Part shown: in pieces, positions 6,969 through 47,907 of the stretch | Numbering within the stretch: position 1 is the first letter of the stretch | Layout of the letters: each line of letters begins with the position of its first letter | NCBI RefSeq assembly: GCF_056712565.1 | Contig: NZ_CM160072.1 | Direction: 5' to 3' (one strand) | Length of the DNA stretch: 64,000 nt | Notes under the pieces: generated by a model | The model's database searches: none | What the model saw: only the letters and a program-made list of their open reading frames with translations | What the model was told of the DNA's origin: nothing | Translations under genes and position numbers: made by a program

Positions 6969-8330
6969 TCAGAAGAACAGTGACGGATCGCCCGCCCGTT
7001 TGGTCAGGCGACCGTTTGCCATAATGCCCATGCTTTCCAGCCAGCGTTCAAACTCCGGTGACGGGCGCAGGTTGAGTAACTGACGCACAGTGGCTGTGTC
7101 GTGGAATGCGGTGGTCTGATAGTTGAGCATGATGTCATCGCCCAGCGGCATCCCCATGATGTAGTTGCAGCCTGCGGTGGCGAGCAGGATCATCAGGTTT
7201 TCGTTGAGGTTCTGGTCAGCGTCAGCGTGGTTGGTGTAGCAGCAGTCACAGCCCATAGAGATGCCGCTCAGCTTACCCATAAAGTGATCTTCTAAGCCTG
7301 CGCGGATAATCTGGCGGTCGTTGTAGAGATACTCCGGCCCAATAAAACCGACCACGGTGTTGACGATAAACGGATCGTAATGACGCGCCAGCCCATAGTT
7401 ACGCGCTTCCATCGTCACCTGGTCTGCGCCGAAGTTAGCGCCAGCGGATAGCGCCGAGCCTTGTCCGGTTTCGAAGTAGAGACAGTTTTCCCCGGCGATA
7501 CGGTTGAACTCCGCGCCCACTGCGCGTGCTTCAGCGAGCATCGCCAGCTCTACGCCAAACTCTTTCAGCCCTTTTTCGCTGCCGCAGATACTCTGGAAAA
7601 TCAGCCCGCCTGGTGCGCCACGACGGATCGCTTCGATCTGGGTGGTGACGTGCGCCAGTACGCAGCCCTGAGTTGGGATGTTGAATTTGTCGATCACGCC
7701 ATAGATGGTATCCAACACGCGGCTTAAGTTTTCCACGTCGTCAGTCACCGGGTTAACGCCGATCACCGCATCGCCCACCCCGAAGGAAAGCCCTTCGTAG
7801 ATTTGCGCGGCGATACTTTGCACGTCGTCACGGGTATCATTCGGCTGCAAACGGGCGCTAAAGGTGCCCGGAATACCAATGGTGGTATTGGCCTTTTTGA
7901 TCACCGGCATTTTCTTCGCGCCGTAGATCAGGTCCGCGTTGGAGCAAATCTTCGCTACCGCCGCCACCACTTCCGAGGTCAGCCCTTTGCGGGTAAAGGC
8001 AATGTCGTCCACGCTGGTTTCATCGCTCAGCACATACTCACGCAGTTCGCTGATGCTCCAGTTTTTAATCTGGTTGTAGGCCGTTTCGTTAACGTCGTCC
8101 TGAATCAGCCGCGTCACGCAGTCATCTTCATAGGCAATCACCGGATTATTGCGGATGTCCGCTACGGTCATTTCCGACAACACCTGCTTTGCCGCCACGC
8201 GCTCCTGTGAGCTTGCCGCAGCAACGCCCGCCAGCACATCCCCCGAACGCAGTTCGTTGGCTTTAGCCAGCACCTCTTTTACATCCTTAAACTGATATAC
8301 ATTGCCGAACAATGTGGTCTTTAGTTTCAT
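6969..8330 (-). CDS. eutB: Ethanolamine ammonia-lyase large subunit EutB
   Basis: 453-aa ORF 'MKLKTTLFGNVYQFKDVKEVL...' matches recalled EutB. Confidence 0.97.
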   Translation of the reverse strand: MKLKTTLFGNVYQFKDVKEVLAKANELRSGDVLAGVAAASSQERVAAKQVLSEMTVADIRNNPVIAYEDDCVTRLIQDDVNETAYNQIKNWSISELREYVLSDETSVDDIAFTRKGLTSEVVAAVAKICSNADLIYGAKKMPVIKKANTTIGIPGTFSARLQPNDTRDDVQSIAAQIYEGLSFGVGDAVIGVNPVTDDVENLSRVLDTIYGVIDKFNIPTQGCVLAHVTTQIEAIRRGAPGGLIFQSICGSEKGLKEFGVELAMLAEARAVGAEFNRIAGENCLYFETGQGSALSAGANFGADQVTMEARNYGLARHYDPFIVNTVVGFIGPEYLYNDRQIIRAGLEDHFMGKLSGISMGCDCCYTNHADADQNLNENLMILLATAGCNYIMGMPLGDDIMLNYQTTAFHDTATVRQLLNLRPSPEFERWLESMGIMANGRLTKRAGDPSLFF

Positions 8331-8341
8331 AAGTCGTTCCC

Positions 8342-9745
8342 TCAGGAAGGAAATGCGAGTGATTTCACCGTCACCGGCACAACCGATCCGCCAAAAAGAG
8401 GCGTACCAATGTCGATATAGTCCCCCGCGCGGACAATCACTTCGTCAATGACTGCCAACGGGAGTTGTTGTAGCTGTGGGCGCAACAACATGCCCAGAGC
8501 TTTACCAAAGTCCTGCCCGGCCACCACCAGCAGGGGATGCGGATTCGGAAAACGCGCGACGAAATCGACCAGCGCGTTGATGACCGTCAGTACCGCGGCG
8601 TAACGCACAGGCAGCGAGGCGGGAAGCGCCAGCACATACGCGTCAGTTTTGGGGCAAAGATCCAGTTGAATCAGCGCCTGTTGCCAGGCACTGACCAGAT
8701 CCGTTTCATCAATCGGGATCGCCACCGGCAAATTGCGCAGCGGCAGTTGTACGCCCTCCAGCCAGATTGTGCTGCCAGAGAGCGAAAGGGTATGAGCACC
8801 CGCGCCAATCACCGTGGCGCGCACGGTTTGCGCCGGAAACTGCACGTTCATCTCACGCAGACGCGGATGGTCATGCAGCGCCGTTGCCAGAAGCGGGCCT
8901 ATATCGGCAAAACAGAACGGGTCGGCGGGCTGGTGGCGATAACATTCGCCCACGCCGCCAGAAAGCGTAATGATTTCGGGCGTAACACCTGCGGGCAGCA
9001 AACCGGTTTGCATCAATGCCTGCGCGAGCGGCGAGAGCGTTCCGTCAATCACTTCGACAATCAGCTCTGCCATCCGGCGAGTAACCTGCACCAGCTGCGC
9101 GCCGGTCAGCGAACGGGCGTCAGTACCGGCACCGAAGCACTCATCCACAATCATCTGCCCCGGTTTATGAGCGTAAACCACGCGCCCCTGGCTGTCGGTT
9201 TCCAGCAGGCGACCGCCGACGTTGAGGCAGGCAGTGCCGCTGATTTTTCCGGCATCGAACAGGGCGTAGTTCGCGGTGCCACCCCCGATATCGATATTCA
9301 GGACCCGACACAGCCGTTGTTCAGAAAGGGTTTGCGCCCCGGCACCGTGTCCGGCGATCACGGATTCAAGATGCGGCCCGGCGCTGGCGACGACAAAATC
9401 GCCCAGCGACCGGGAGAGCGCCATCACCGCCGGGCGAGCGTTGCGGGTTTTTGCGCTTTCACCGGTGATAATGATGGCACCAGAATCAACGCTTTCCGGC
9501 GCAATGCCCGCAGCCTGATATTGCTCGAGGATTAAGGTTTTCAGTTCCGCTTCTTTTAAACCACCCTGTTTATCGACAGGGGTAAAAAACACCGGGCTTT
9601 GCCAGCTAATTTCGCGTTTGATGAATTCGTAGCGCGGCACCTGCGACACCGCCGCACGGTTAACCAGCTCCAGGTGGGAGAAGATCACCTGGGTGGTGGT
9701 GGTGCCGATATCGATACCGACGCTCAGTAGCTGGCGAGTGTTCAC
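8342..9745 (-). CDS. eutA: Ethanolamine ammonia-lyase reactivase EutA
   Basis: 467-aa ORF matches recalled EutA; lies 11 bp from eutB. Confidence 0.95.
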   Translation of the reverse strand: MNTRQLLSVGIDIGTTTTQVIFSHLELVNRAAVSQVPRYEFIKREISWQSPVFFTPVDKQGGLKEAELKTLILEQYQAAGIAPESVDSGAIIITGESAKTRNARPAVMALSRSLGDFVVASAGPHLESVIAGHGAGAQTLSEQRLCRVLNIDIGGGTANYALFDAGKISGTACLNVGGRLLETDSQGRVVYAHKPGQMIVDECFGAGTDARSLTGAQLVQVTRRMAELIVEVIDGTLSPLAQALMQTGLLPAGVTPEIITLSGGVGECYRHQPADPFCFADIGPLLATALHDHPRLREMNVQFPAQTVRATVIGAGAHTLSLSGSTIWLEGVQLPLRNLPVAIPIDETDLVSAWQQALIQLDLCPKTDAYVLALPASLPVRYAAVLTVINALVDFVARFPNPHPLLVVAGQDFGKALGMLLRPQLQQLPLAVIDEVIVRAGDYIDIGTPLFGGSVVPVTVKSLAFPS

Positions 9746-36653: not shown

Positions 36654-38669
36654 TCAGTGAAAAAATTGCCATTGCGTTATGCGATCGCGCAGACGCTCAG
36701 TGCGAACATCATCAAGTGCGAATAGCGCCTGCGCGGCCTCTTCCCGCTGGCGAACCAGTAACAGCTTACGGCCTGAAAGTTTAAGTGTGGTACATAACTG
36801 CGCGTCACTGGCGTTTTTCTGTAAACGCCCACGCAGCGCCGGTAATGCCAGTTCGCTGGTTTGTAGCAAACGCAATAAGCAACCTAACGATGTTAATAGC
36901 GGACGATGAGTGAAAGCAAAACCGGCCAGTTCAAGCCAGTCGTCGTCAGAAAGGACGGCATCGTTTAGTGGATCAACAGGAAGCATTTCGCCATTCCACT
37001 GCGCGAGAGCTTGCGCATCGCGACGTAAACGGTAATGCTCACGTTCAGCCAGTTGTTTACCCGCATCACTCATCGGTAACAGCGCCATCGCCGTATAGCA
37101 ACCGCTGCTGGCTTCACGATGATTACCCATTCGCACCAGCACAAAACCGCAGCGTTGCCAGAAACGCCATAACTCCTCGGTGTAACCAAAACTCACCGAA
37201 AGATAGTCGAGGTCATGAATATATTGCAAAGCACCAGCAATCAGTTGCTGACCTGTGCCTTCCCGCTGACGAGCCGGATGAACTGCTATTCGGCTGACCC
37301 GCCTTCCGCGCAATGTCGCCGCCAGTGGATTGCTGCCGTGCGCCGCCAGCGACTGGGCCACCAGATTACCCCGCGGGCGACGAAAACCTGCCCATACCGC
37401 CTGACTGAGTTCTTGAGATAATCCGCCCTCATCCACCAGCCACAGCGCCCCGGCAATCTCGTTTTCGCCAGCCGCCTGTAAAAAATGTTGACCTGGTGCA
37501 TCCATCATGCGGCGTAAATCCAGCGGCGAAGTCCGGTAGTGCGCACCAGACAATAATTGATAAACCTTTAACGGCGTTTCTGGCTCGCTTCGCCATAACG
37601 TCTGTTCAAATGCGGAAATAACGATATTGCCTTGTGGTGTATGGGTGAAGTTTTCATCGTCAAACACCAGTGCCTCACTAACCATTTTTTCCAGCGGGCA
37701 TCCCTGCGCCCAACGGATCGGCTGTTGTAGTTCAAAACGGTGTAAATGCGGAAAGCGAGCGCAAAATTTCAGCAAAAAACCACGTCCGGTGCCTTCGTAG
37801 CCCTGCACCGTAGTGGTTAACAACGTTCGAGGAAAACGCGATACCAGTTGATACAACAACGGCGCAGGTATAGCTGCGGCTTCATCGACCACCAGCCAGT
37901 CGGCTTGCTCATCGCTGGCTAACAAGGCATCCGGTGCAATAAAGCGAAACTTCTCACCCGCAAATTGTGCCAGTACATCCGTTGCCGCTTTTGCGGGCGC
38001 GGTGACAATCGCACTGCCCGCAATACGAGAAATGAGTTGCCCTGCCAACGCCGACTTACCGCGCCCACGCGCAGCAGTTACCGCTGCCACGCCCGGCGGC
38101 ATGGTCAGTAGCTGCTGTAAGAGTTGCTGTTGTTCTGGTTGTGGTGCGCCGGTAGCGGGGTGCCAGTCAGTACGGGGAGTAAAATGCGCCAACGAGAACG
38201 GCTGGTTTTGCCGCCAGAGGATAGCGTCGTTATTCGCCGTAAGTACGCGTTTGAAATGCTGGACAAAATGCGGCGTCGCAATAGGGTCAGGGCAATCACT
38301 CCAGCGCAGCGAGTCGGCATCAGGTTGGTTTTCCCACTCATCCCATACAGGGAGTAACAACACCAGCCAGCTTCCCGCTTTCAACGTTCCGCTAAGTGCC
38401 GCAAAGGCAGCGGCATCAAAGCCTTGGCGGGCGTCGAATACCGCATGCCGGAACTCGCGCCCAAGTAAAGTTTGTAGTGCCGAGGGAGAACAGTGGTTTT
38501 CAGCATCTGGCTGCGGCGAAATCCACAGCCAGTCGCCAGGTAAGGCATCACGCAACTTAAGCGCATGATCAAAACACCAACGCTCTTCCCCGCTCAACAC
38601 CAGCAAGCGGCGGATCCCTTCACGTTTCATTTGCGCTGTTAATGTGTGAAGCGCAGTCAGTTCAGCCAT
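36654..38669 (-). CDS. tmcA: tRNA(Met) cytidine acetyltransferase TmcA (YpfI)
   Basis: 671-aa ORF with helicase-like P-loop 'ARGRGKS' and C-terminal GNAT region; matches recalled TmcA. Confidence 0.93.
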   Translation of the reverse strand: MAELTALHTLTAQMKREGIRRLLVLSGEERWCFDHALKLRDALPGDWLWISPQPDAENHCSPSALQTLLGREFRHAVFDARQGFDAAAFAALSGTLKAGSWLVLLLPVWDEWENQPDADSLRWSDCPDPIATPHFVQHFKRVLTANNDAILWRQNQPFSLAHFTPRTDWHPATGAPQPEQQQLLQQLLTMPPGVAAVTAARGRGKSALAGQLISRIAGSAIVTAPAKAATDVLAQFAGEKFRFIAPDALLASDEQADWLVVDEAAAIPAPLLYQLVSRFPRTLLTTTVQGYEGTGRGFLLKFCARFPHLHRFELQQPIRWAQGCPLEKMVSEALVFDDENFTHTPQGNIVISAFEQTLWRSEPETPLKVYQLLSGAHYRTSPLDLRRMMDAPGQHFLQAAGENEIAGALWLVDEGGLSQELSQAVWAGFRRPRGNLVAQSLAAHGSNPLAATLRGRRVSRIAVHPARQREGTGQQLIAGALQYIHDLDYLSVSFGYTEELWRFWQRCGFVLVRMGNHREASSGCYTAMALLPMSDAGKQLAEREHYRLRRDAQALAQWNGEMLPVDPLNDAVLSDDDWLELAGFAFTHRPLLTSLGCLLRLLQTSELALPALRGRLQKNASDAQLCTTLKLSGRKLLLVRQREEAAQALFALDDVRTERLRDRITQWQFFH

Positions 38670-38683
38670 CCCTGCCCCGGAAG

Positions 38684-39547
38684 TTAAATGCTTTTACCAA
38701 AAGTATTGCATTGTGCCGGATCGCCGCTGTCGAAACCACGTTTAAACCAGCTGTAGCGTTGCTGAGAAGTGCCATGAGTGAAACTGTCTGGTACTACTCG
38801 CCCCTGACTTTGCTGTTGTAAACGGTCATCGCCGATGGCCTGCGCCGCGTTTAGCGCCTCTTCCAGATCGCCGGTTTCCAGAACACCTTGCTGCTGCATA
38901 CTATGCCCCCAGACACCGGCAAAACAGTCGGCCTGGAGTTCCATACGCACAGATAAGCGGTTTACTTCCGCCTGCGTCGCGTTTTGTTGCAGTTGACGAA
39001 CTTTCGGCTCGATGCCTAACAGTTTCTGCACATGATGACCGACTTCATGAGCGATAACGTACCCCTGGGCAAAATCGCCATCCGCGCCAAGTTTGTCTTT
39101 CATGTCATCATAGAAGGAGAGATCGATATAAACTGTGCCATCCGCCGGGCAATAGAATGGCCCCATTATGGACTGGCCCGCCCCGCAGCCGGTACGCGTC
39201 ATTCCACGGTACATGACCAGCTTCGGTTGCTGATAGGTTTTACCCATCTTCTCGAATTGCTGTCCCCAGGTGTCTTCCGTGGTTGCCAGAATCACCGAGG
39301 TGAATTTTGCGGCTTCGTCTTCATTAGGGCTAATTGACCGCGTTGATTGCTGTTGGGAAACCGGCTGTCCGGTCATCAACCCGGTTAAATCAACGCCATA
39401 GTAGCCTGCAACCAGCACGACTATCAGTAAAATCAGCCCGCCTTTACCGCTTGGCAGGCGAAAACCGGGACCGCCCATAGACGGACCACCAGAGCTGTTG
39501 CGCCTGTCTTCAACATTGTCACTTTCACGTCGCCCTTGCCAACGCAT
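38684..39547 (-). CDS. ypfJ: Putative zinc metalloprotease YpfJ (HExxH)
   Basis: 287-aa ORF with 'HEVGHH' motif; matches recalled YpfJ. Confidence 0.9.
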
Positions 39548-39714
39548 AGATACCTCAACATTATATTCATTATAGAAATGATCGTAGGTGGTTCAGAGGA
39601 AGATTACCACAGGAAAGCGGGATGAAATGGCGGAGGAATGAGCGTTCAATGCACATCTTATGAGAGCGGTTGTCTTGCCGTGCCAGCAGCACGGCAAGAT
39701 GATGAACAGAAAAA

Positions 39715-40428
39715 TCAGTCCAGCTGTACACCCAGGCGGCGGGCAACGGCTTCATAGGCTTCGATCAGGCCACCGAGGCTCTGTCGGAAACGGTCTTTGT
39801 CCATTTTCTCCAGCGTTTCTTTGTCCCACAGGCGGCTGCCGTCCGGGGAGAACTCATCGCCCAGTACCACTTCACCTTTGTACAGGCCAAACTCCAGCTT
39901 GAAGTCGACCAGAATGAGACCAGCATCATCGAACAGTTTTTTCAGCACGTCGTTCGCTTTGTAGGTCAGCTCTTTCATACGCGCCAGGTTCTCTTTGCTC
40001 ACCCAGCCAAAGGTTTCGCAGTAAGATTCGTTGACCATCGGATCGTGCATGGCGTCGTTTTTCAGGAACAGATCGAACAGTGGCGGGTTCAGCTCAATAC
40101 CTTCTTCGATTCCAAGACGTTTCACCAGAGAGCCAGCAGCACGGTTACGCACGACACACTCAACCGGCACCATATCCAGCTTTTTCACCAGACATTCGGT
40201 ATCGGAGAGCAGACGCTCCATTTGAGTCGGGATACCCGCTTCAGCCAGTTTGCTCATAATGAAGTAGTTGAACTTGTTGTTCACCATACCTTTGCGATCA
40301 AACTGCTCAATGCGCGCGCCATCCCCTGCTGACGTATCATTGCGGAATTCGAGCACCAACAGGTCCGGGTTTTCCGTGCTGTATACGGTTTTCGCTTTAC
40401 CACGATACAACTCAGCTTGCTTTTGCAT
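39715..40428 (-). CDS. purC: SAICAR synthetase PurC
   Basis: ORF 39715..40437; trimmed to '[18 protein letters not shown]..' (237 aa). Confidence 0.95.
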
Positions 40429-40482
40429 CTTTATCACTCCTGGGTGTGAATTAACGTTTTAAAATCTTTTGCTGTCTGGTGT

Positions 40483-40540
<58 letters not shown>

Positions 40541-40640
40541 AATTTCGTGCGAATTACCGCTAAAATCGCGTTTTTCTGCCGACGCACACGTTTGCGTATC
40601 ATATCAGAAAAAAGGGCCGGATGACTCCAGCCCTGTATTT

Positions 40641-41675
40641 TTACTTGCTAAACGCAGCCTGGAAGACAGCTACCAGCGCGTCGTTCTGACTCTGAGTCAG
40701 AGTATGACCTTTCGGATCGATGAACTGTAGGCTGCTGCGGTTATCTAAATCGCCAACCTGCAGTTTATAGTCACCGGATGCCAGACCTGGATCGCTCGCG
40801 CCCAGTTCGTGCCATTCGCTGTCAGACAGCGGCTTATAAGTTACGGCCATGTTGCCCTGCGAACGGGTGCTGTCAGTCACTTTCATGCCCACTTTTTCCA
40901 GCGCAGCTGGCAGACGTTGCCAAACCACATTGAACGGCCCGCGTACGACCAGCATTGGTAAACCGGTGTCATCAGCTGCACTTTGTACGTCCATAGTGGT
41001 GGAGGCACGATTTTGCGCAGCGTTCGCGGCGTCAGTGGCAGATTTATCCAGACCGGCGGAAATAACGTTCATCATCTCCGTGCTGTAACGCTGCATGGAC
41101 GCCGCGTCTGCAACCGGTTTGCCCGCCTGTTCCAGGTTCAGCAGTTTAACCGTAACCGCCTGCTGATAACCCTGCGGCTTAACAGAGATTTGATAACGAC
41201 CACGATACTGCTCGTCTTCATCCAGACGGTTCCATTGTACCCAATCGGTGGTCAGTGTCTGACCAGCATCATCACGTTGGGTGATGGTGTAGTTTTTCGC
41301 CTGCAGCACGCTAACCACCTGCGGCCACAGAGTATTGCCACGACCATTTTCCACCAGCAATGAAGCGGTATCGCCCGTGAACTGGGTACGCGCGCCAGAA
41401 ACCAGTGCCAGCGGCTGGGCTGGTGGACGAATGTCCAGCGCCTTACCGACGGCACCACTACCGTTGGTCACCGGGATTGCATAATCGCCGGAGGTCACCG
41501 GCAAGATCATTCCAGCCGGGGCATGAAGCTCCGCAAGCGGTGCCGCTTCCAGGTAGGCTTCATCACCACTGACCTGACGCTTATAGCGTGAGTCAGAACT
41601 ACAGGCAGCGAGTAATAAAACAAGCGAAACACCCGCAACCTTTGCCAGGCGCGACTTTTGAACAGAGTAAGCCAT
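40641..41675 (-). CDS. bamC: Outer membrane assembly lipoprotein BamC (NlpB)
   Basis: ORF 40641..41678; trimmed to '[27 protein letters not shown]..' (344 aa, lipobox LAAC). Confidence 0.95.
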
Positions 41676-41691
41676 CAAATCTCCCTAAACT

Positions 41692-42570
41692 TTACAGCAA
41701 ACCGGCATGCTTAAGCGCCGCTCTGACCGTCTCACGACCACTGTCGGTGATTGGTGTCATTGGCAGGCGCAGCGTATCGGTCGCCACAAGACCCAGTTCC
41801 TTACATGCCCATTTCACCGGGATTGGATTGGGTTCGACAAATAGTTTGTTGTGTAATGGCATCAGACGCTGATTAATAACGCGTGCCTCGGCAAAATGCC
41901 CTTCTGCTGCCAGTTTGCACATCTGGGCCATATCACGCGCTGCGACGTTAGCCGTAACGGAAATAACCCCATGACCGCCTAATTGCATGAAGTCCAGCGC
42001 GCTCGCATCATCGCCGCTCAGCAGAACAAAATCATCTGAAACCAGCTCTTTGATCTGGTTTACACGCGTTAAGTTCCCTGTTGCCTCTTTGATTCCGATA
42101 ATATTTTTTACTTTCGCCAGACGGCCCACCGTTTCCGGGAGCAGATCGCAGCCAGTACGGGACGGCACATTATACAGAATTTGCGGCAGGTCAGTATGTT
42201 CAGCGATGGCTTTGAAATGCTGATACAAACCTTCTTGCGACGGACGATTGTAGTAAGGGGTTACCGTCAGGCAGCCGACGATACCGCTGTCATTGAAGCG
42301 CTGCGTCAGGCTAATGGCTTCCGCAGTAGCGTTAGCACCGGTCCCGGCAATCACCGGAATGCGCCCGTCAGCCAGCTCCAGCGTCATCATCACCACATCA
42401 GCATGTTCGTCATGATTTAAGGTAGCGGACTCGCCAGTGGTGCCAACAGAAACGATCGCCGAAGTACCGCTGGCGACATGATAATCAATCAGTTTTTTCA
42501 AGCTAGCCCGACAGACATTACCTTTTTCATCCATCGGAGTAACAATCGCGACAATACTTCCCGTGAACAT
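41692..42570 (-). CDS. dapA: 4-hydroxy-tetrahydrodipicolinate synthase DapA
   Basis: ORF 41692..42588; trimmed to '[19 protein letters not shown]..' (292 aa). Confidence 0.95.
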
Positions 42571-42715
42571 GGGCCATCCTCTGTGCAAACAAGTGTCTCA
42601 ATGGTACGTTTGGTATGGCATTAAAAGCAAGCAGACAGAACCGTTCTGATTGTTGTATGCATGTTTTTTTTATGCTTTCCTTAAGAACAACTCACCCCTT
42701 GAAGGAATAACCAGT

Positions 42716-43288
42716 TTGACACTGTCATCGCAACATTATCTGGTGATCACTGCGTTGGGTGCCGATCGCCCTGGAATAGTGAACACCATCACCCGTCATG
42801 TCAGTAGTTGCGGCTGTAATATTGAAGACAGTCGCCTGGCGATGCTGGGAGAAGAGTTCACGTTTATCATGCTGCTTTCCGGTTCATGGAATGCCATTAC
42901 TCTGATTGAATCAACGTTACCGTTGAAAGGTGCCGAGCTGGATCTTTTAATCGTGATGAAGCGCACGACGGCGCGTCCGCGTCCGCCAATGCCAGCATCT
43001 GTCTGGGTTCAGGTCGATGTGGCAGACTCCCCGCATTTAATTGAACGCTTCACAGCACTTTTCGACGCGCATCATATGAACATTGCGGAGCTGGTGTCGC
43101 GCACGCAACCTGCTGAAAATGAAAGGGCTGCGCAGTTGCATATTCAGATAACTGCCCACAGCCCCGCATCTGCGGACGCAGCAAATATTGAGCAAGCGTT
43201 CAAAGCCCTATGTACAGAACTCAATGCACAAGGCAGTATTAACGTCGTCAATTATTCCCAACATGATGAACAGGATGGAGTTAAGTAA
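42716..43288 (+). CDS. gcvR: Glycine cleavage system transcriptional repressor GcvR
   Basis: ORF 42650..43288; recalled GcvR starts 'MTLSSQHYLVITAL' (190 aa), i.e. an in-frame TTG start at 42716. Confidence 0.85.
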   Translation: MTLSSQHYLVITALGADRPGIVNTITRHVSSCGCNIEDSRLAMLGEEFTFIMLLSGSWNAITLIESTLPLKGAELDLLIVMKRTTARPRPPMPASVWVQVDVADSPHLIERFTALFDAHHMNIAELVSRTQPAENERAAQLHIQITAHSPASADAANIEQAFKALCTELNAQGSINVVNYSQHDEQDGVK

Positions 43289-43758
43289 TGAATCCACTGA
43301 AAGCCGGTGATATCGCACCGAAATTTAGCTTGCCGGATCAAGACGGAGAACAAGTTAATTTGACCGACTTCCAGGGACAGCGTGTTCTGGTTTATTTCTA
43401 CCCGAAAGCCATGACCCCCGGCTGTACCGTACAGGCCTGCGGCTTACGCGATAACATGGATGAGTTGAAAAAAGCGGGCGTTGATGTGCTGGGTATCAGC
43501 ACCGATAAACCCGAAAAACTCTCCCGTTTTGCGGAAAAAGAGCTGCTTAACTTTACGCTCCTGTCTGATGAGGACCACCAGGTGTGCGAACAATTCGGCG
43601 TCTGGGGTGAAAAGTCCTTCATGGGCAAAACCTACGATGGTATTCATCGCATCAGCTTCCTGATTGACGCTGATGGCAAAATCGAACATGTCTTTGACGA
43701 TTTCAAAACCAGCAATCACCACGACGTTGTGCTGAACTGGCTGAAAGAACACGCCTGA
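43288..43758 (+). CDS. bcp: Thiol peroxidase / bacterioferritin comigratory protein Bcp
   Basis: 156-aa ORF 'MNPLKAGDIAPKFSLPDQDGEQV..' matches recalled Bcp; start overlaps gcvR stop. Confidence 0.97.
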   Translation: MNPLKAGDIAPKFSLPDQDGEQVNLTDFQGQRVLVYFYPKAMTPGCTVQACGLRDNMDELKKAGVDVLGISTDKPEKLSRFAEKELLNFTLLSDEDHQVCEQFGVWGEKSFMGKTYDGIHRISFLIDADGKIEHVFDDFKTSNHHDVVLNWLKEHA

Positions 43759-43775
43759 TTACTTTGCTCCATTCC

Positions 43776-43801
43776 GTGCTGGCTGCGCTTGCGGCCAGCA
43801 C
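43776..43801 (+). terminator. GC-rich hairpin (GTGCTGGC..GCCAGCAC) downstream of bcp; no clear U-tract
   Basis: Inverted repeat read directly in the 98-bp bcp-perM spacer. Confidence 0.4.
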
Positions 43802-43856
43802 ATCTCAAATCTTCTCACTGCCCTGCAACACTCGTTTAAAATTTTTTCGCTGAAGG

Positions 43857-44918
43857 TCAGTCTTGCGCGATTTGCCCATCAGGCCAGGCGTGAATCACGG
43901 CTTTGATCAGCGTCGCCAATGGAATAGCGAAGAATACGCCCCAGAATCCCCACAAACCACCGAAGATCACCACCGATAAAATAATCACCAGAGGATGCAG
44001 GTTAACCGCTTCGGAGAACAACACCGGTACTAACAGGTTGCCGTCCAGCGCCTGAATAATCAGATACACCGCGAAGCAGCTCCAGAATTCCGTGCCAGCA
44101 CCAAACTGGAATAGCGCCACGCCAACCACCGGAATGGTCACCACAAATGCGCCAATGTACGGAATAAGTACCGAGAAGCCGACCAGCACCGCCAGCAGCA
44201 GCGAATAGTTCAGCCCAAAGAGCAAGAACCCCAGCCAGGTGGCGATCCCTACCACGATCATCTCCAGCACTTTGCCGCGGATATAGTTGGTGATTTGTTG
44301 ATTCATCTCCTTCCACACCTGTCCTGCCAGTCCACGGTTGCGCGGCAGCACCCGGCGAACGGCGTTCAGCATCTGCTCTTTGTCTTTCAGCAGGAAGAAG
44401 ACCATCAATGGCACCAGCACCAGATAGACGGCAATGGTCAGCAAACCAACCAACGAGGCGAGGGAAATTTTCACCACCGAATCGCCCATGGTCAGCATCC
44501 GACTGCGCATATTTTCAGCCATTGCATCAATAATGCCCGCATCCATTAACGCCGGATAGCGGCGCGGCAACGTGGCGGCAAAGTCAGAAAGCTTATTGAG
44601 CATCCCCGGCATATCGCGGATTAAGTAGATGCCCTGCTGCCAGGCGATAGGCAGTACCACGAACGCCATCAGTAGCAGGATGCCCACAAACAGGATCAGC
44701 ACGATAGATGTCGCCCAAGGGCGGGAACAGCCAATAGACTGCAGGCGGACAGTCGGCCATTCCAGTAAATAGGCCAGCACAATAGCCACCAGCAACGGCG
44801 CGAGTAGGCCGCTAAAGAAAAAGATAATGCCAAAACCAGCAACCAAAATAACCAGCAAGGCAATCGCTTCCGGGTCGCTAAAACGGCGGCGATACCATTG
44901 CATCAACATTTCGAGCAT
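43857..44918 (-). CDS. perM: AI-2E-family permease PerM (YfgO)
   Basis: 353-aa polytopic membrane ORF matches recalled PerM. Confidence 0.93.
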   Translation of the reverse strand: MLEMLMQWYRRRFSDPEAIALLVILVAGFGIIFFFSGLLAPLLVAIVLAYLLEWPTVRLQSIGCSRPWATSIVLILFVGILLLMAFVVLPIAWQQGIYLIRDMPGMLNKLSDFAATLPRRYPALMDAGIIDAMAENMRSRMLTMGDSVVKISLASLVGLLTIAVYLVLVPLMVFFLLKDKEQMLNAVRRVLPRNRGLAGQVWKEMNQQITNYIRGKVLEMIVVGIATWLGFLLFGLNYSLLLAVLVGFSVLIPYIGAFVVTIPVVGVALFQFGAGTEFWSCFAVYLIIQALDGNLLVPVLFSEAVNLHPLVIILSVVIFGGLWGFWGVFFAIPLATLIKAVIHAWPDGQIAQD

Positions 44919-45130
44919 ACAGACCTTCCCTGAACCTCAAGAGCGGGATTGCGATCCGCAATTGTATCGAAATGTCACAAAAAAGACTTCGCTTTTTATG
45001 ACGGATTCAGGAAACTGAAAAGTCATTTGAGTGGGCTAATCTTCGCCGTTACACTCAAAGGCGGCGCGGTGGGAACGATATTTCACAGTATCGGTCAAAT
45101 GACTATCTCCAGAAATACAGGATAGAGGTT

Positions 45131-46594
45131 ATGTTCAGGCAGTTGAAAAAAAACCTGGTTGCAACCCTCATTGCTGCTATGACCATTGGTCAGGTAGCCC
45201 CGGCGTTTGCCGACAGCGCAGACACCTTGCCGGATATGGGAACCTCCGCAGGAAGCACACTTTCCATTGGTCAGGAAATGCAGATGGGCGACTATTATGT
45301 CCGCCAGTTACGCGGCAGCGCGCCGTTAATTAATGATCCGCTGTTAACGCAATACATTAATTCGCTAGGAATGCGTCTGGTTTCGCATGCCAATTCGGTT
45401 AAGACACCGTTTCATTTCTTTCTGATCAACAACGATGAAATTAACGCCTTTGCTTTCTTTGGCGGCAACGTGGTGCTGCACTCTGCCCTGTTCCGTTATT
45501 CCGATAACGAAAGTCAACTGGCTTCAGTTATGGCGCACGAAATCTCCCACGTCACCCAACGTCACCTGGCGCGAGCGATGGAAGATCAGCAGCGCAGCGC
45601 GCCGCTGACCTGGGTCGGCGCGTTAGGTTCTATTTTACTGGCGATGGCCAGTCCGCAGGCGGGGATGGCGGCGCTGACCGGTACACTGGCGGGAACGCGC
45701 CAGGGGATGATCAGTTTCACCCAGCAAAATGAACAGGAAGCGGACCGCATTGGTATTCAGGTGCTGCAACGCTCGGGATTCGATCCGCAGGCGATGCCGA
45801 CCTTCCTCGAAAAATTACTCGATCAGGCGCGTTACTCTTCGCGCCCACCAGAAATTCTGCTCACTCACCCACTACCGGAAAGCCGTCTGGCTGATGCCCG
45901 TAACCGTGCCAATCAGATGAGCCCGATAGTGGTGCAATCGTCAGAAGATTTCTATCTGGCAAAAGTGCGCACACTGGGGATGTACAATTCAGGGCGTAAC
46001 CAACTCACCAGTGATTTGCTGGATGAATGGGCGAAAGGAAACGTTCGTCAGCAACGAGCGGCGCAATATGGTCGTGCTTTACAGGCGATGGAAGCCAATA
46101 AATACGACGAGGCGCGTAAAACGCTGCAACCGTTACTGGCGGCAGAACCTGGCAACGCATGGTATCTCGATCTGGCTACCGATATCGATCTTGGGCAAAA
46201 CAAAGCCAATGACGCTATCAATCGCCTGAAAAATGCCCGCGATTTGCGCACCAATCCGGTGTTGCAGCTCAACCTGGCGAACGCTTATCTGCAAGGGGGG
46301 CAACCACAGGAAGCGGCCAATATTCTGAATCGCTACACTTTTAACAATAAAGATGACAGCAACGGCTGGGATTTACTGGCACAGGCGGAAGCCGCACTAA
46401 ATAACCGCGATCAGGAACTGGCTGCGCGAGCAGAAGGTTATGCGCTCGCCGGGCGACTCGATCAGGCTATTTCCTTGTTGAGTAGCGCCAGTTCGCAGGT
46501 GAAATTAGGCAGCCTGCAACAAGCGCGTTACGATGCGCGCATCGACCAGTTGCGCCAGCTGCAGGAACGCTTTAAGCCTTATACCAAGATGTAA
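45131..46594 (+). CDS. bepA: Periplasmic beta-barrel assembly-enhancing protease BepA (YfgC), M48 peptidase plus TPR
   Basis: 487-aa ORF with '[10 protein letters not shown]' zinc motif; matches recalled BepA. Confidence 0.95.
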
Positions 46595-46614
46595 TTCGCA
46601 TTAAAGGAAGAACA

Positions 46615-46974
46615 ATGACCAAACAGGTAAAAATCTACCATAACCCACGCTGTTCAAAGAGCCGGGAAACGCTGAACCTGCTGAAAGAAAACGGCGTGGA
46701 GCCAGAAGTGGTGCTCTACCTTGAGACACCCGCCGATGCGGCAACGCTGCGTGATTTGCTGAAAATGCTGGGGATGAATAGCGCTCGTGAATTGATGCGC
46801 CAAAAAGAGGATCTTTATAAAGAACTGAACCTGGCTGACAGTTCGCTTAGCGAAGAGGTGCTGATTCAGGCGATGGTAGAGAATCCGAAGCTAATGGAAC
46901 GCCCGATTGTGGTCGCGAATGGCAAAGCGCGGATTGGTCGTCCACCGGAGCAGGTACTGGAAATCGTGGGTTAA
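46615..46974 (+). CDS. yfgD: ArsC-family protein YfgD
   Basis: 119-aa ORF 'MTKQVKIYHNPRCSKSRETL..' matches recalled YfgD. Confidence 0.93.
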   Translation: MTKQVKIYHNPRCSKSRETLNLLKENGVEPEVVLYLETPADAATLRDLLKMLGMNSARELMRQKEDLYKELNLADSSLSEEVLIQAMVENPKLMERPIVVANGKARIGRPPEQVLEIVG

Positions 46975-47003
46975 GATGTGCTCCATCGCTAGTTGAAGCA
47001 CAT

Positions 47004-47099
47004 TGCCGGATGCGACGCTTGCCGCGTCTTATCCGGCCTACGAATACTATGGATTAACTTCGCGTAGGTCGGATAAGGCGTTCGCGCCGCATCCGACAA
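47004..47099. repeat. BIME: two REP elements in inverted orientation
   Basis: TGCCGGATGCGACGCTTGCCGCGTCTTATCCGGCCTACG and its inverted partner CGCGTAGGTCGGATAAGGCGTTCGCGCCGCATCCGACAA. Confidence 0.85.
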
Positions 47100-47111
47100 T
47101 AAACACCTTAT

Positions 47112-47813
47112 CTACAACTTCAGAATTTCTTTCACAAACGGAATGGTCAGCTTGCGTTGCGCGGTAATCGACGCACGATCCAGCTGATCCAGCGTCATAA
47201 ACAACGTGCGCATTTCTCTGTCGAGCCGCTTCAGCAAGAAACGCCCCACATCTTCCGGCAGTTCAAAACCACGCAAACGCGCGCGTAACTGTAGCGCCTG
47301 CAACTTATCTTCATCAGAAAGTGGCTGCAATTTGTAGATCTGCCCCCAGTCGAGACGCGACGCGAGATCCGGTAATCCCAGATTCAACTGCCGCGGTGGA
47401 CGATCGCCGGTGATCAACAACCGTGTTTTGCCCGATTCCAGAATTCGATTGTAGAGATCGAAAATCGCCATCTCCCACAACTCATCGCCGGCAATACACT
47501 CAATGTTGTCAATACAGACCAGCGACAAATGCTCCATACCGTCGAGCACTTCCGGAACAAACCAGGTGCGTTTATCCAGCGGGACATAGCCCACCGCATC
47601 GCCACGCTGTGACAATTCCGCGCAAGCCGCGTGCAGCAGATGGCTGCGCCCCGCGCCTTCGCGTGCCCAGAGATAGATGTAACCGCTATGTTCCTGACGC
47701 AGCACGTTTTGCAGCGCGGCCAGTAAAGAGGAGTTATCCCCCGGCCAGAAACTTGCAAAGGTTTCGTCGTCAGGAAGATAAAGTGGCAAAGAGAGCTGTG
47801 CCGGTGTGTTCAG
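47112..47813 (-). CDS. hda: DnaA-inactivating protein Hda
   Basis: ORF track 47112..47858 (248 aa); Hda is, as I recall, 233 aa initiating at a CUG 15 codons inside; the codon at 47811..47813 is CTG (read as cag on plus strand). Confidence 0.85.
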
Positions 47814-47907
47814 AGATACCTCAACCAGGATTTCACAAAATCGCGAGAAGTTTACCACAGAATCCCATGATGTTTGAACCGGGCAGCAACACTGCCCGGT
47901 CGGTACA

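Follow-up and report, generated by a model that had tools for sequence, protein, structure and literature searches.

A hyf-less allele between bcp and perM in a B2-type Escherichia coli chromosome, probably an old deletion shared with Escherichia albertii

How did the hydrogenase-4 genes come to be missing between bcp and perM in some Escherichia coli chromosomes? We studied this question in a stretch of 64,000 nt from contig NZ_CM160072.1 (hereafter the window), in which the order of genes is purC, bamC, dapA, gcvR, bcp, perM (on the opposite strand), bepA, arsC, hda, uraA and upp. The stop codons of the convergent genes bcp and perM lie exactly 98 bp apart, and both flanking proteins are intact, with AhpC/TSA and AI-2E transporter Pfam domains, respectively. 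In K-12 MG1655, 13,871 bp separate the two stop codons and hold hyfA, hyfB, hyfC, hyfD, hyfE, hyfF, hyfG, hyfH, hyfI, hyfJ, hyfR and focB. The original prediction, made from the letters of the window, had placed about 13 kb of hyfABCDEFGHIJR-focB there, and these 12 genes bear it out. The opposite arrangement, with bcp directly adjoining perM in K-12, was checked as well and does not hold for MG1655. The ORFs and the spacer alignment likewise agree with what had been claimed for the window itself, namely a distance of 98 bp, a hairpin-bearing spacer and no remnant ORF. The features of the interval are collected in Table 1.

Table 1. Features of the bcp-perM interval, in window coordinates
Feature	Position	Strand	Basis
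bcp, thioredoxin-dependent thiol peroxidase (AhpC/TSA peroxiredoxin), 156 aa	43288-43758	+	ORF; Pfam AhpC-TSA, E 1e-41; RefSeq annotation of the identical ATCC 11775 sequence
hyf-less allele, 98-bp bcp-perM spacer	43759-43856	no strand	ORF coordinates
GC-rich stem-loop 3' of bcp, 11 bp, no U-tract	43776-43801	+	fold
putative relic of the distal hyfA upstream control region	43802-43848	+	alignments
CCCTGCAACAC, probable counterpart of the CCCTGCGACAC element of hyf+ alleles, inside the relic	43821-43831	+	alignments
GCTGAAG, junction hexamer GCTGAA (43849-43854) plus G	43849-43855	+	junction alignments; 1 nt before the perM stop codon
perM/yfgO, AI-2E family transporter, 353 aa, intact	43857-44918	-	ORF; Pfam AI-2E_transport, E 7e-88

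Scans of the spacer revealed no canonical terminator or promoter and no Rfam match above chance. The small-ORF scan gave merely mechanical frames of 24-32 aa and none longer than 32 aa. No coding remnant of hyf or focB was found in the spacer, as its significant matches to the K-12 interval are confined to nucleotides 1-42. This part, which runs through the hairpin, is 100% identical to K-12. The hairpin forms 11 pairs in a consensus fold of five Escherichia alleles, one of them by way of a compensatory change from U-A to C-G, and it is the last element that the window and hyf+ E. coli have in common at about 100% identity. The other 56 nt of the spacer correspond in the alignment to the distal stretch between bcp and hyfA in K-12, as far as GCTGAA. 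Judging from this alignment, they appear to be a diverged relic of the non-coding region upstream of hyfA. The perM product ends in ...IAQD-TGA in the window and in E. albertii, as opposed to ...IAQE-TAA in hyf+ E. coli.

To place the hyf-less state within the species, we turned to 5,426 complete E. coli genomes. In 1,126 of them (21%) bcp, spacer and perM were contiguous, that is, aligned as one place at 97.5% identity or more; elsewhere the two genes formed separate places. Since the finding is one of comparison, chance plays no part in it. At least 80% of the K-12 hyf interval was held by 4,292 of the 5,426. The genomes that do not hold it match only its first 49-54 nt, which correspond to the bcp hairpin, so hyf has not been relocated elsewhere in them. 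Among the hyf-less genomes are the E. coli type strain as well as Nissle 1917 and an O25b:H4-ST131 strain, both of which we take to belong to phylogroup B2. In three other hyf-less E. coli the spacer is identical to that of the window at 96-97 of 97-98 bases (0-2 substitutions and one 1-nt indel). None of the loci of the Clermont B2 profile (arpA-, chuA+, yjaA+, TspE4.C2+) lies within the 64-kb window. Its positions 5-60009 differ from the type strain ATCC 11775/DSM 30083T, a member of phylogroup B2 (PMC4334874), by 3 mismatches and 1 gap.

The absence had been predicted to be lineage-informative and typical of B2, and both this near-identity and the literature support it. Gonzalez-Alba et al. 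(2019, PMC6896753) name the hyf operon as one of the losses of the F/G/B2 lineage, and hyf genes are listed among the genes associated with E. coli clades in a metagenome study of necrotizing enterocolitis (PMC4819403), their association with uropathogenic clades being negative. Pairing hyf with the names of B2 strains or with E. fergusonii or E. albertii in literature searches yielded nothing useful. The core observation, the absence of hyf-focB from B2-type E. coli, is confirmed as real; it is an already known and published lineage marker.

Phylogroup F, the sister of G+B2, calls for a correction. IAI39 and CE10, both of serotype O7:K1, carry hyf-focB with K-12-type junctions, and both are presumably members of F. 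Because these two strains carry the cluster, the absence of hyf does not extend to all of phylogroup F, provided that this assignment holds, and this qualifies the published F/G/B2 attribution. In the Clermont scheme, arpA is absent from B2, F and G. Among the complete genomes, arpA is missing from 1,320 and hyf from 1,126, and the larger number of arpA-less genomes fits the retention of hyf in part of F. The hyfR gene carries an internal stop and is annotated as a pseudogene in IAI39 (L099 16673-18685) and CE10 (L100 15447-17459); in both the cluster may be decaying although it is present. This correction and the genealogy of the allele are the sole new elements of our analysis.

Several observations concern other parts of the comparison. 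K-12 hyfG (L001 9676-11343) is annotated as 555 aa long, as against 571 aa in O157 (L006 8139-9854), IAI39 and others, and many hyf+ genomes align to the K-12 interval in two pieces that span about 13,918 nt rather than 13,871. K-12 hyfG seems, from these alignments, to carry a deletion of about 48 nt. In the window, eutA and eutB are contiguous (about 6970-9745). The cryptic prophage CPZ-55 is presumably inserted in the K-12 eut operon near the counterpart of this place; if so, the contiguity of eutA and eutB is another K-12-specific difference. At the far end (60010-64000), the sequence ceases to be homologous to the K-12 and ATCC 11775 chromosomes some 10 nt short of the guaA stop codon. 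The prophage end beyond guaA carries DUF2514 and GH19 endolysin genes, genes for two holins, and one for an endosialidase (K1-capsule-specific) tail protein. Same-site prophages of O1/O2:K1:H7 APEC/ExPEC, IHE3034, CE10 and IAI39 match it at 99% identity, and only 71 of the 5,426 genomes contain at least 80% of 59800-64000. The window therefore comes from a genome other than the finished ATCC 11775 assembly.

How old is the hyf-less allele? It could be young: the ancestor of B2 (or of F/G/B2) would have lost 13.8 kb from a hyf+ allele through illegitimate recombination between GCTGAA hexamers. Within E. coli, parsimony favours loss in B2, as strains of A, E and F are hyf+, and a loss in F/G/B2 is what the literature describes (PMC6896753). 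We aligned the junction with the K-12 bcp-hyfA and focB-perM junctions, as had been proposed for mapping the breakpoints, and found the variable segment bracketed by GCTGAA. The hexamer occurs at both junctions in K-12 and in single copy in the window; it also marks both ends in O157, IAI39 and others, and GCTGAA(G) precedes the perM stop codon in hyf+ genomes, too. GCTGAA is, however, a common word, with 15 copies in the K-12 interval. The direct repeat at the junction is suggestive only, and a coincidence is possible.

The nucleotides around the junction argue against such a recent event. Up to the end of the hairpin, IAI39 and the window differ at 6 of 2,180 nt, and beyond it the spacers diverge sharply; this points away from a recent deletion of an E. 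coli hyf+ allele as the source of the B2 allele. Turning the predicted product of a GCTGAA deletion in the IAI39 or K-12 allele into the window spacer takes no fewer than 9 substitutions and some 21 nt of indels over the 55-76 nt at the junction. At the rate of the flank, that many spacer substitutions have a probability of about 4e-26. After a recent deletion the flanks should otherwise be identical to those of the nearest occupied allele, and this is not what we found. Nor is the region fast-evolving, since hyf+ spacers from phylogroups A, E and F agree at 97-99%. The junctions are nearly identical in hyf+ genomes of phylogroups A and E, in two unassigned strains and in IAI39.

The window spacer has the length and indel structure of E. 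albertii. After the hairpin, the next 55 nt of the two differ by 10 substitutions and one 1-nt indel (45 of 55 identical). The E. coli hyf+ spacer, aligned with many gaps, matches at just as many positions, so the weight of the argument lies on how the indels are arranged and on how sharply the spacer contrasts with the near-identical flank. The segment that decides on the genealogy of the allele is about 56 nt only, and among non-coli Escherichia with an empty slot the sample was a single E. albertii genome plus L010. On balance, we consider a recent deletion in the B2 lineage unlikely. L010, labelled E. coli SCPM-O-B-8794, is about 93% identical and has a spacer of 61 bp. If it goes back to a K-12-type allele, this spacer would represent a second deletion; if it goes back to an E. 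albertii-type allele, an internal deletion of 37 nt.

The likeness to E. albertii does not continue into perM. In the first 203 nt of the gene no special affinity was seen, with 10 mismatches between the window and E. albertii versus 11 between K-12 and E. albertii. Any imported tract would now be tiny, and no linked foreign tract is left in perM. A large imported tract was considered on account of the divergence of perM (95.1% identity between the window and K-12, with neighbouring genes at 98-99.8%) and was rejected, as 30 of about 52 mismatches fall into one patch of 200 nt. This hyperdivergent patch (44649-44848) has 30 mismatches to both K-12 and IAI39; in it the window groups with E. albertii, and K-12 and IAI39 group with L010. 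Since the patch is polymorphic among hyf-less genomes, with U14A being of K-12 type, it is a separate, small recombination mosaic, independent of the hyf junction.

Was the slot ever occupied in the ancestry of the window? We scanned about 70 genomes of Enterobacterales and Vibrionaceae, one per species, as outgroups, and in most of them, E. albertii, L010 and Vibrio among them, bcp directly adjoined perM. This at first favoured a primitive empty site, that is, a slot in which bcp and perM were ancestrally adjacent and into which hyf-focB was inserted later, as an acquired island, in other E. coli lineages. The 6-nt direct repeat that flanks the segment resembles a target-site duplication, and E. 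coli HyfF is without a close relative outside the species (nearest at most 84% identical). The idea was dropped once E. fergusonii, Citrobacter enshiensis and Kosakonia proved to carry hyf at this very position and the empty spacer proved to contain a relic of the hyf control region.

In these three taxa, as well as in Enterobacter sp. Bisph1 and a soil MAG, the cluster has the same slot and orientation as in K-12, and in the first three the junctions are homologous. The E. fergusonii cluster (L089 4283-17038) is without focB and has, before perM, the same terminator-like hairpin. Klebsiella indica, with its hyf cluster at a different locus, is an exception to slot residency. Relative to K-12, the protein identity of Hyf and of the flanks is 79.5% versus 93.2% in E. 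fergusonii, 79.4% versus 92.6% in C. enshiensis and 73.3% versus 88.8% in Kosakonia; the divergence of the cluster thus scales with that of its flanks, although over four taxa only. One gene of the E. fergusonii cluster stands out: hyfG is 87% identical to K-12 in nucleotides and 97% in amino acids, with other hyf genes at 66-77% in nucleotides, which suggests gene conversion or unusually strong constraint.

The layout upstream of hyfA is conserved as well. In the regions compared (L001 2138-2389, L089 4038-4282, L096 4021-4281 and L094 4008-4275) it consists of a CRP-like palindrome, a CGACAC...TGyCGA element, a GAACGTTAATGACCATCA box and TGGCAT-N5-TGCA, the last of which we take to be the sigma-54 promoter of the HyfR/FhlA-dependent hyf operon. 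The palindrome lies directly downstream of the bcp hairpin and reads GTGATCAAGATCAC in K-12, TGTGATTTAGCTCACA in E. fergusonii and TGTGACTAATATCACA in C. enshiensis; the empty alleles of the window and E. albertii are without about 20 nt of it. The element upstream of hyfA given in Table 1 is conserved in K-12, E. fergusonii, C. enshiensis, Kosakonia and K. indica. As it accompanies hyf even at the other locus of K. indica, it belongs to the hyf cassette. Its form CCCTrCrACAC is retained in the spacers of the window and of E. albertii, and the E. albertii copy equals the E. fergusonii element over 12 consecutive bases, CCCTACGACACT. Because the empty spacer retains part of the hyf control region, the empty allele most plausibly goes back to an occupied allele by deletion and does not represent a never-occupied site.

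Neither mobility genes nor an attachment site mark the segment as an island. The K-12, O157 and IAI39 intervals contain hyf genes and focB only, with no integrase, transposase or IS, and a scan of K-12 (L001 1-18000) and of window positions 38000-50000 found no tRNA or tmRNA gene. The G+C content of the hyf segment is mildly different from that of the flanks (53.8% versus 50%), and its GC3 is inside the range of the flanking genes. In addition, phylogroup F, the presumed sister of B2/G, is hyf+ in IAI39 and CE10. Given the same slot in several genera, the divergence that tracks the flanks, the conserved upstream layout and the lack of integrase, IS and tRNA genes, we conclude that hyf has long been resident in the bcp-perM slot, was largely inherited vertically and has been lost many times. 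A primitive empty site seems to us more improbable still than a recent deletion. That the cluster was collapsed out of the sequence by an artefact of assembly or sampling is hardly credible: we found no point in its favour, and the identical junction is shared by 1,126 independent complete genomes, the finished type-strain chromosome among them, with no hyf elsewhere in them.

In other genera the slot contains unrelated inserts of 1-8 kb (L011-L013, L022, L026, L035, L054 and L055). Inserts in the slot measure about 2.5 kb in Citrobacter werkmanii and C. youngae, 3.8 kb in strain RIT691, 7.7 kb in Pluralibacter gergoviae and 8 kb in Klebsiella sp. BIGb0407. In gene content, the slot appears to be a site of recurrent change.

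The original prediction had left it to the junction alignment to distinguish deletion from insertion, and an old deletion is favoured. We assign a probability of roughly 0.68 to the reading that the window carries an old deletion allele shared with E. albertii and not a fresh B2 deletion. Several Enterobacteriaceae genera have hyfABCDEFGHIJR, with or without focB, in this slot. The segment missing from the window extends from just downstream of the activator-like element upstream of hyf to 1-8 nt beyond the perM stop codon, its end points being marked in hyf+ genomes by GCTGAA on each side. The bcp 3' stem-loop and about 47 nt of relic hyf control region are what is left. Since the allele class is common to E. 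albertii and to about 21% of complete E. coli (B2-type), the deletion was presumably ancient and a single event. B2 would then hold the null allele by inheritance or introgression, and not because an E. coli hyf+ allele was freshly deleted.

Two routes may have led there. The allele could have come by homologous recombination from a hyf-less Escherichia, with its flanks later overwritten by E. coli sequence, or it could have persisted as a long-lived polymorphism. A more specific version of the first route, which we put forward only tentatively and regard as somewhat doubtful, is that B2 lost hydrogenase-4 by allelic replacement: a hyf-less bcp-perM allele related to that of E. albertii would have been imported, and later recombination with E. 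coli would have erased all of it except the spacer of about 60 nt. If this is true, the spacer could not be 'repaired' without re-importing hyf, and the hyf+/hyf- polymorphism would be older than the species.

A strain with this allele would be without hydrogenase-4/FHL-2, HyfR and FocB, and would be left with hyc (hydrogenase-3) as its one formate hydrogenlyase and FocA as its one formate channel for formate-dependent hydrogen production. The hyf operon of K-12 is poorly expressed under laboratory conditions, so its loss probably costs little. The B2 lineage contains most extraintestinal pathogens. The absence of hyf-focB is a robust and easily scored marker of B2-type E. coli, though not a new one. 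Beyond this, the locus is of modest value as a small example of gene loss that may have come about through an inherited or imported null allele rather than through in situ mutation.

Three known systems can be set beside the window. The losses listed in PMC6896753 and the clade associations of hyf genes in PMC4819403 show the same presence/absence polymorphism of hyf, with the cluster missing in B2-type genomes. In PMC6896753, the loss is assigned to the whole of F/G/B2. Here, in contrast, IAI39 and CE10, presumed members of F, carry hyf. The K-12 hyf locus has the same flanking genes in the same order and orientation, and on the bcp side it is 99.3% identical to the window over 2,186 nt, hairpin included; it differs in that the window lacks the 13.8-kb cluster and has another allele class in the 56 nt after the hairpin and in the region of the perM stop. 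The spacer of E. albertii NBRC 107761 is likewise without hyf and is collinear with that of the window (99 versus 98 bp, 80 of 98 bases identical, one 1-nt indel). It shares the hairpin, with one compensatory pair, the relic element and the Asp-TGA ending of perM, although it belongs to another species, and its flanking genes differ from those of the window in 4-10% of nucleotides. We infer that the two alleles are related, either by descent or by transfer.
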